DNA of 64,000 nucleotides from Dictyostelium discoideum. Its lineage: Eukaryota. Shown here piece by piece: positions 30,793-32,083 of the stretch. A program made the translations under genes and the position numbers. The notes beneath the pieces were generated by a model. It did no database searches, was not told the DNA's origin, and worked only from the letters and a program-made list of their open reading frames with translations. The number at the start of each line of letters is the position of its first letter. The stretch's first letter is position 1. The stretch is from NCBI GenBank assembly GCA_000004695.1, contig CM000155.2:3488001-3552000 (forward strand), read 5' to 3'.

Positions 30793-31562
30793 ATGTCAAG
30801 AAAAAATGGAATGTTTAATTGTCAACACATTTCAGATGAAGGAAAAGCTGGCCAATGGTAAAATCTATTTTTTATTTTTAGAAAAATAATTAGAGTTCTA
30901 ATTTTTTTTTTTTTTTTTTTTTTTAATAAGGGAGATGAAATATTTACAATTAACAGAATCAAATTTAATTGTTAAAGAAAATGCTGATGATCATATTGTC
31001 AGAAGTACAATTCATCTTTGTGATATAGTTTATGTAGAAAGAGAGAGTAAATCAAAAACCTTATCATTGGATAAACAATCAAACACAATTGAAAATTTAG
31101 ACGATTCAACAAATACTGGTCATGTTTCAGTTGAATTATCAGATTCACAGGAATCAATTTTAATACACATTAAAACTCGTTATAAATCTGAATGGAAAAT
31201 TGAAATGGAATCAGAGGAAACTTATGAGGAATGGTATAATATTTTTAAAAGACACCAAGGTGTAATGAGAGAGATAGACATTAATCCTCCACCACCAAGA
31301 AGAAATCGTAAACCTAAATATACATTTAAAACTTTTTATGAAAATAGAGAATTATTAGGTGAAAGATGGATGCTTTTTGCATTCATAGCCTATACAATCA
31401 TTTTAGTAATTTTATTTTCAGTACTTTGGACTAAATATGTTTTACCAGAAAAAAATATTGTTGAAATTGAATCTCAATGCTTTATTCATTCAGCAGAGTA
31501 ATTATTCCAAAGTTTTTTTTTTCCAAGTTTACTAAAAGAAAAAAAAAAAAAAAATATTAACC

Positions 31563-31600
<38 letters not shown>

Positions 31601-32083
31601 TGTTACAAAATTAAAATTTTAGTGCTGTATATGTTTATAAAAGAAATTATGATTTAGAAATTTTAGTAACTTATCAATTAGAAAATGGTCAATTTTTAAC
31701 AAATTTAATGTATCAATATTGTAGTGGTAATGGATGTCCAGATTTTATGGATGATAATTATAAAGTTGGCACAACTGTAACTTGTCATTATGATGAAGCT
31801 GATCCAAATTATGTATTTTTTGATCTTAGTCAAATGGTTAGAAAGAGATACACAATTACATTTGGTATTTGTGGTGGTCTACTTGGTCCTTGGTTAATAG
31901 TAGTTTTGGTTATAGGGTAAGTTTTACAATGATAATTTTAAAAAAAAAAAGAAAAAAAAAAAAAAAAAACAACTTTTTTAACTCTTTTTTTTTTTAATTT
32001 TTTATTTTTCTATTAGATTTTTATCAAGAAAGAAAATTGCTCAAATGTTTAAAGATTCTTGTTGTCCAGATGATGATGATTAG
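30793..32083 (+). CDS. Two-pass membrane protein of about 330 aa. It has a cytosolic N-terminal domain, TM1, a roughly 95-aa Cys-containing loop, TM2 and a short acidic CCPDDDD tail. Four exons: 30793..30857, 30931..31497, 31623..31916 and 32017..32083.
   Basis: ATG at 30793 (MSRKNGMFNCQHISDEGKAGQ|W). All introns are phase 2 with good signals (GTAAAA/TAAG, GTAATT/TTTTAG, GTAAGT/TATTAG). The frame stays open across each junction: ...IESQCFIHSA-D-AVYVYKRNYDLEILVTYQLENGQF..., ...GPWLIVVLVIG-FLSRKKIAQMFKDSCCPDDDD*. TM1 is WMLFAFIAYTIILVILFSVLW and TM2 is ITFGICGGLLGPWLIVVLVIGFL. The track ends the ORF at 31501 (TAA within the GTAATT donor) and lists 31708..31920 as a separate ORF. Confidence 0.6.

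Follow-up and report, generated by a model that had tools for sequence, protein, structure and literature searches.

The four-exon Dictyostelium discoideum gene DDB_G0293980 and its PH domain product with a predicted membrane hairpin and a DUF3592-like loop

The vertebrate BK (Slo1) beta subunits KCNMB1-4 (Pfam CaKB, PF03185) regulate an ion channel and have two transmembrane (TM) helices around an exoplasmic loop with four conserved cysteines, behind a short N-terminus or inactivation ball. Canonical phosphoinositide-binding PH domains, such as those of Akt1, DAPP1, TAPP1 and ArhGAP9, have a pocket of basic residues of the form KXn(K/R)XR, which in Akt1 is formed by K14, R23 and R25. An arrangement of two TM helices around a beta-rich domain of ~90-110 amino acids is also characteristic of the bacterial DUF3592 (Pfam PF12158), described in one paper as a transmembrane protein of unclear function adjoining LXG toxins; in mycobacteria, a DUF3592 protein has been predicted, in a 2026 preprint, to act as cofactor to the membrane mannosyltransferase MptB. 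Here we describe DDB_G0293980, a gene at positions 30793 to 32083 on the forward strand of a 64,000-nucleotide stretch of Dictyostelium discoideum DNA (the window; GenBank assembly GCA_000004695.1, contig CM000155.2, positions 3,488,001 to 3,552,000). We conclude with considerable confidence that this is an ordinary, expressed and annotated four-exon gene, and that its product is predicted to comprise a PH domain, TM1, a DUF3592-like barrel, TM2 and a short tail.

Exon structure and transcripts of DDB_G0293980

Joining the segments 30793-30857, 30931-31497, 31623-31916 and 32017-32083 yields, by all-frame translation, a 993-nt in-frame coding sequence that begins with the ATG at 30793, ends with a stop codon at 32081-32083, and encodes a product of 330 residues with the C-terminus ...SCCPDDDD. 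An exact-sequence look-up shows that this product is identical, residue for residue, to DDB_G0293980 (EAL60489.1, XP_628886.1, UniProt Q54B30; 'PH domain-containing protein', D. discoideum AX4), a database entry without functional characterisation. This identity marks the window as D. discoideum nuclear DNA. The gene had been described as cryptic in an earlier sequence-only reading, but it is already present in the D. discoideum reference annotation, to which the gene model adds nothing; the protein is uncharacterised.

The four exons are separated by three phase-2 introns, each with a GTAA...AG structure and boundaries that are canonical for Dictyostelium, and the reading frame is open once these are spliced. 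Exon 1 (30793-30857, 65 nt) encodes residues 1-21 and contributes 2 nt of W22, and is followed by intron 1 (30858-30930, 73 nt, 9.6% GC), which extends from GTAAAATC to TTAATAAG (GTAAAA...AATAAG). Exon 2 (30931-31497, 567 nt) contains the remainder of the PH domain, a PPPP linker and TM1, and continues into the loop for 20 residues, C205 among them. Intron 2 (31498-31622, 125 nt, GTAATTAT...AATTTTAG; GTAATT...TTTTAG) precedes exon 3 (31623-31916, 294 nt), which encodes the bulk of the predicted exoplasmic beta-barrel, with C244, C249 and C265, and the bulk of TM2. After intron 3 (31917-32016, 100 nt, GTAAGTTT...TCTATTAG; GTAAGT...CTATTAG), exon 4 (32017-32083, 67 nt) supplies the end of TM2, a basic juxtamembrane stretch, the CCPDDDD tail and the stop. 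The GC content of the introns is about 10-12% as against 27-34% in the exons, and the window varies between about 13% and 30% throughout, interrupted by short stretches that are exceptionally rich in AT.

A protein search recovered a 330-residue protein (P0001) that is 99% identical to the product and is present only on contigs of about 1.1 kb from four sequencing runs. These four Logan contigs (L001-L004; SRR24091722/25/26/28) are independent of one another and intronless, and each aligns with the window as four blocks (30729-30858, 30930-31497, 31623-31916 and 32016-32142) that abut at the proposed junctions, and all three splice junctions are found in them exactly. Three of the blocks are 100% identical to the window and the remaining one has three single-nucleotide polymorphisms, which correspond to S97P, a silent change at H130, and I137R. 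The contigs start at 30729-30734 and contain no ATG upstream of the start codon, defining a 5' untranslated region (UTR) of at least 30729-30792; the 3' UTR extends over at least 32084-32144, with the contigs ending at 32142-32144, shortly past an AATAAA at 32128. Because they are intronless and carry UTRs, we infer that the contigs are assembled mRNAs, and we take them to come from another strain. The four-exon structure put forward in the sequence-only reading thus stands, including its junction numbers (30858/30930, 31498/31622 and 31917/32016, which are the first and last bases of each intron) and the terminal mini-exon ending in CCPDDDD. The agreement of this gene model with transcripts and orthologues is far beyond chance.

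A further transcript-derived Logan protein of 323 residues (P0010) matches past the exon 3/4 junction (...FLSRKKIA) and then continues with an unrelated DRKSVV where its 1011-nt contig ends. This divergent end is probably an artefact of the assembly end, not an isoform.

The list of open reading frames (ORFs) for the window has mechanical boundaries and splits the gene into 30935..31501 and 31708..31920, because phase-2 introns with G/GTAA donors generate an immediate in-frame TAA. Such a TAA follows each of the first three exons directly (TGG TAA at 30855-30860, GAG TAA at 31496-31501, and GGG TAA at 31915-31920). As had been proposed, the apparent stop at 31499-31501 is supplied by the intron 2 donor, and exon 3 runs in phase into the 31708..31920 ORF, as seen both in the joined frame and in the contigs. 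Taken at face value the list would describe two genes, one encoding a 211-residue PH plus single-TM protein that ends at 31501 and the other a 70-residue peptide that starts at 31708, and both are uninterrupted reading frames. However, all four contigs splice from 31497 to 31623 and from 31916 to 32017. In addition, the 211-residue and 70-residue products are absent from about 15 billion catalogued proteins, among which the 330-residue product is present, and all of the orthologues are full length, with the best-conserved block crossing the junctions. We therefore reject the two-gene interpretation on the spliced contigs and the catalogued-protein look-up, and consider it exceedingly improbable. 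The methodological value of the locus is as an example of how phase-2 introns with G/GTAA donors make ORF-style tracks systematically cut Dictyostelium genes short.

The PH domain and the membrane half

The N-terminal domain, residues ~5-130, is encoded by 30805-31255 across intron 1 and includes a disordered insert at residues 63-95. Pfam PH matches the protein itself at residues 17-129 with an E value of 0.008 (17.2 bits, compared with a gathering cut-off of 25.1), and is matched in 11 of 15 family members with a best E value of 2.5e-12. AlphaFold2 modelling with the 15-sequence family alignment gave a mean predicted local distance difference test score (pLDDT) of 75, with the PH-like domain at about 77-88 outside of the insert. 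A Foldseek search of the PDB with the model returned PH domains only (GRK2, ArhGAP9, TAPP1, DAPP1 and BTK among them) with probability 1.0, and the modelled domain has the seven-stranded beta-sandwich and C-terminal helix with a conserved tryptophan, here the invariant W123. Because of the Foldseek matches and the Pfam PH matches across the family, the predicted structure of the N-terminal domain is assigned as a PH fold. The sequence-only reading could not place the protein in any known family, which no longer holds for this domain.

The PH domain departs from canonical phosphoinositide-binding domains in several respects. In the beta1-beta2 region (H12-I13-S14-D15-E16-G17...W22-E23-M24-K25-Y26) K25 is the sole basic residue, and S14, D15 and E23 stand in for the basic residues of KXn(K/R)XR, when compared with K14, R23 and R25 of Akt1; the orthologues retain both D15 and E23. 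Because the canonical pocket is not kept, high-affinity phosphoinositide binding seems unlikely from the sequence. Unlike its canonical counterparts, the domain also has the 33-residue disordered insert (63-95) and is tethered to a membrane hairpin.

A proline-rich, basic linker connects the PH domain to TM1, which spans residues 168-190 (31367-31435) in a hydropathy scan and lies in a helix of residues 164-196 in model 2. The predicted exoplasmic loop domain follows (residues 191-287, 97 amino acids; 31436-31851, spanning intron 2), and then TM2 (residues 288-312; 31852-32026, spanning intron 3), identified from hydropathy and the model. In model 2 the loop forms a small OB-like beta-barrel (residues 200-270) with one helix, at a pLDDT of about 88-94, so that the structure prediction that had been recommended gave a PH-like N-terminus and a beta-barrel loop between two helices. 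The cytosolic tail consists of a basic stretch, a Cys-Cys pair and an acidic end. Both helices are bordered by basic residues on the cytosolic side, and by the positive-inside rule the protein would therefore have both termini inside and the loop on the exoplasmic face. The overall topology suggested previously (cytosolic N-terminus, TM1, a loop of ~95 amino acids, TM2, acidic tail) agrees with this prediction from hydropathy and modelling, but the loop contains four cysteines and not the five proposed, since the fifth, C294, lies inside TM2. The four loop cysteines, Cys205, 244, 249 and 265, are invariant in all family members that cover the loop and presumably form two disulfides. There is no N-glycosylation sequon within loop residues 191-287. 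The tail pair, C324 and C325, is a candidate palmitoylation site.

Family range and possible relatives of the loop domain

Full-length orthologues of 321-331 amino acids, covering 98-100% of the product, are present in D. firmibasis, D. dimigraforme, D. citrinum and D. purpureum. At the D. purpureum genomic locus (L005 6001-7139, GL870956.1) introns 1 and 2 occur at the same codon and in the same phase, and intron 3 is absent. The neighbours of the D. purpureum gene, encoding an FNIP-repeat protein and a cofilin, differ from those in the window and there is no local synteny. An exhaustive hidden Markov model search with a profile of the C-terminal 181 residues against 1.84 billion representatives gave 13 matches, eight of which are real and derive from Acytostelium subglobosum, Heterostelium album, Cavenderia fasciculata, Polysphondylium violaceum, D. 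purpureum and D. discoideum. The weaker matches (P0018-P0022) were dismissed as compositional, being long repetitive bacterial proteins (MucBP, for example) aligned over several short stretches only. No relative outside of the Dictyostelia was found in this HMMER search, and within its reach the family is restricted to that group. Every complete family sequence has both the PH domain and the TM-loop-TM half, and two short fragments cover only part. Other searches were less informative: the sole match of the family profile among PDB sequences was a spurious one to AcrIIA4 (E value of 0.22), a scan of NCBIfam gave nothing meaningful, and a loop-only alignment found no match in the protein database at E ≤ 10, a search that is uninformative because the family itself was also not recovered.

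The family includes a second paralogue, DDB_G0290189 (Q54GF9) in D. discoideum and DICPUDRAFT_147724 in D. purpureum. These proteins share with DDB_G0293980 the order of PH domain, TM helix, four-cysteine loop and TM helix, at 31-34% identity, but they are without the cysteine-containing cytosolic tail, differ in the PH insert and the linker, and have annotated C-termini that disagree between strains. The annotated products of DDB_G0290189 (P0025, P0014, P0023 and P0024) are 309, 318, 323 and 348 amino acids long in different D. discoideum strains, and those of 309, 323 and 348 amino acids diverge directly past TM2. This suggests that the 3' end of DDB_G0290189 is inconsistently called, possibly with a terminal intron, like intron 3 of DDB_G0293980, missed or retained.

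The sequence-only reading found the protein reminiscent of channel beta subunits, and its architecture is indeed that of CaKB proteins, with two TM helices around an exoplasmic loop and four conserved cysteines. However, neither the sequence nor its profile is significantly similar to KCNMB1-4, and the resemblance fails at the sequence level. Comparison of the family by hhalign with an alignment of KCNMB1 orthologues and beta4 gave a probability of 1.2% (P 0.043, score 19.3), anchored in an 'FxCYxxp...vlxRxY' stretch; although greedy extension of this alignment is collinear, 26 of the 150 block-shuffled controls do equally well. Pfam CaKB gave no match at E ≤ 1 in any family member scanned. 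The family also differs from KCNMB1-4 in having a PH domain in place of the short N-terminus or inactivation ball, and in its taxonomic range. We thus reject homology with the BK beta subunits at the sequence level, and regard it as quite unlikely that the TM-loop-TM half is truly homologous to these regulators of an ion channel.

The comparison with DUF3592 is more favorable. Pfam DUF3592 matches the protein itself at residues 255-275 with an E value of 0.004, and matches at E values of 0.0019-0.0038 occur in all eight Dictyostelium orthologues and in six of the 15 family members. For profile comparison we used six real annotated DUF3592 domains from plasmids, which were found with a synthetic consensus-like probe that was itself left out; a tblastn search of phages for DUF3592 gave no match. 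Alignment of the family to these six domains by hhalign (P 0.0094, score 22.1, 51 columns) pairs the central strands and a 'YxxGxxVxVxYDxxxP' motif, with two of 150 block-shuffled controls reaching this score and a reversed control scoring 10.7; a control alignment of BK beta with DUF3592 gave P 0.16. All six domains have the layout of the dictyostelid protein (TM1 at 168-190, barrel at 200-270 and TM2 at 288-312), with the '(Y)xxGxxVxVxYDxxxP' motif likewise located before TM2, and the sequence signal is weak but above the shuffle control. In contrast to DUF3592, the dictyostelid family is eukaryotic and restricted to the Dictyostelia, has four invariant cysteines as well as a CxGxxCP insert, and carries a cytosolic PH domain fused to its membrane half. 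Taken with the Pfam matches at the same place, the hhalign result is modest evidence, not of membership grade, that the loop is a divergent DUF3592-type barrel.

Several points weigh against our interpretation of the locus as a whole. The structure models were built on 15 sequences only and have a predicted template modelling score of 0.40, and the disulfide pairing and membrane topology are predictions. The RNA origin of the Logan contigs is deduced from their intronless and UTR features. The DUF3592 match scores 18.3 bits against a gathering score of 25.3, covers 21 residues, and is absent from the more divergent family members. Lastly, neither DDB_G0293980 nor its paralogue DDB_G0290189 is named in any paper found in a literature search.

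The main alternative is that the loop is a lineage-specific, cysteine-stabilised OB-like barrel that is unrelated to DUF3592 and has converged on the TM-barrel-TM layout, the protein being a receptor for an extracellular ligand or for adhesion, with signalling through its PH domain. The confinement of the HMMER matches to Dictyostelia is consistent with this, as are the sub-threshold nature of all of the DUF3592 signals and the lack of a counterpart for the four cysteines and the CxGxxCP insert in the DUF3592 sequences examined. However, two partly independent tests agree on a single DUF3592 motif before TM2 (Pfam E values of 0.002-0.004; hhalign P 0.009, with two of 150 shuffles), and the overall architecture is identical. 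We view this alternative as a minority possibility, but one to be taken seriously. A more specific proposal, that the family is a Dictyostelia-specific offshoot of the bacterial DUF3592 module which gained two disulfides and a cytosolic PH domain and serves a polytopic membrane protein as its auxiliary subunit, in functional analogy to BK beta and to the predicted MptB cofactor, strikes us as doubtful; if true, it would make the function of DUF3592 accessible to experiment in a eukaryote for the first time.

With regard to function, the analogy with the mycobacterial DUF3592 protein predicted as the MptB cofactor leads us to propose, tentatively, that DDB_G0293980 could serve a membrane partner as an auxiliary subunit or adaptor. 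The TM hairpin and its disulfide-stabilised barrel would dock onto this polytopic partner or onto a ligand outside the cell. On the cytosolic face the PH domain, as a surface for protein interaction or weak lipid interaction, would act together with the possibly palmitoylated tail. The lineage-restricted combination of a PH domain and a DUF3592-like hairpin makes the protein a mildly interesting candidate auxiliary subunit or receptor, which is easily testable by D. discoideum genetics.

Neighbouring loci in the window

Directly downstream of DDB_G0293980 and convergent with it is a 1015-codon ORF (32311-35358, reverse strand) with matches to NDT80_PhoG (E value of 8e-13) and Peptidase_S74 (E value of 5e-12) followed by C-terminal hydrophobic segments. 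This domain order is that of MYRF-type membrane-tethered transcription factors, and the ORF is probably Dictyostelium MrfA. Upstream, a forward-strand ORF (26426-27619) contains a poly-Asn/Thr tract, then a complete protein kinase domain (Pfam Pkinase, E value of 2.6e-60) and a poly-Phe end; this end looks like read-through into an intron, and this gene, too, is probably truncated in an ORF-style track. A 435-codon ORF on the reverse strand (35695-37002) is composed mostly of poly-Asn, His and Ser runs without any Pfam match, and the overlapping opposite-strand and alternative-frame ORFs at 35841-36644 are homopolymer artefacts of these same repeats.
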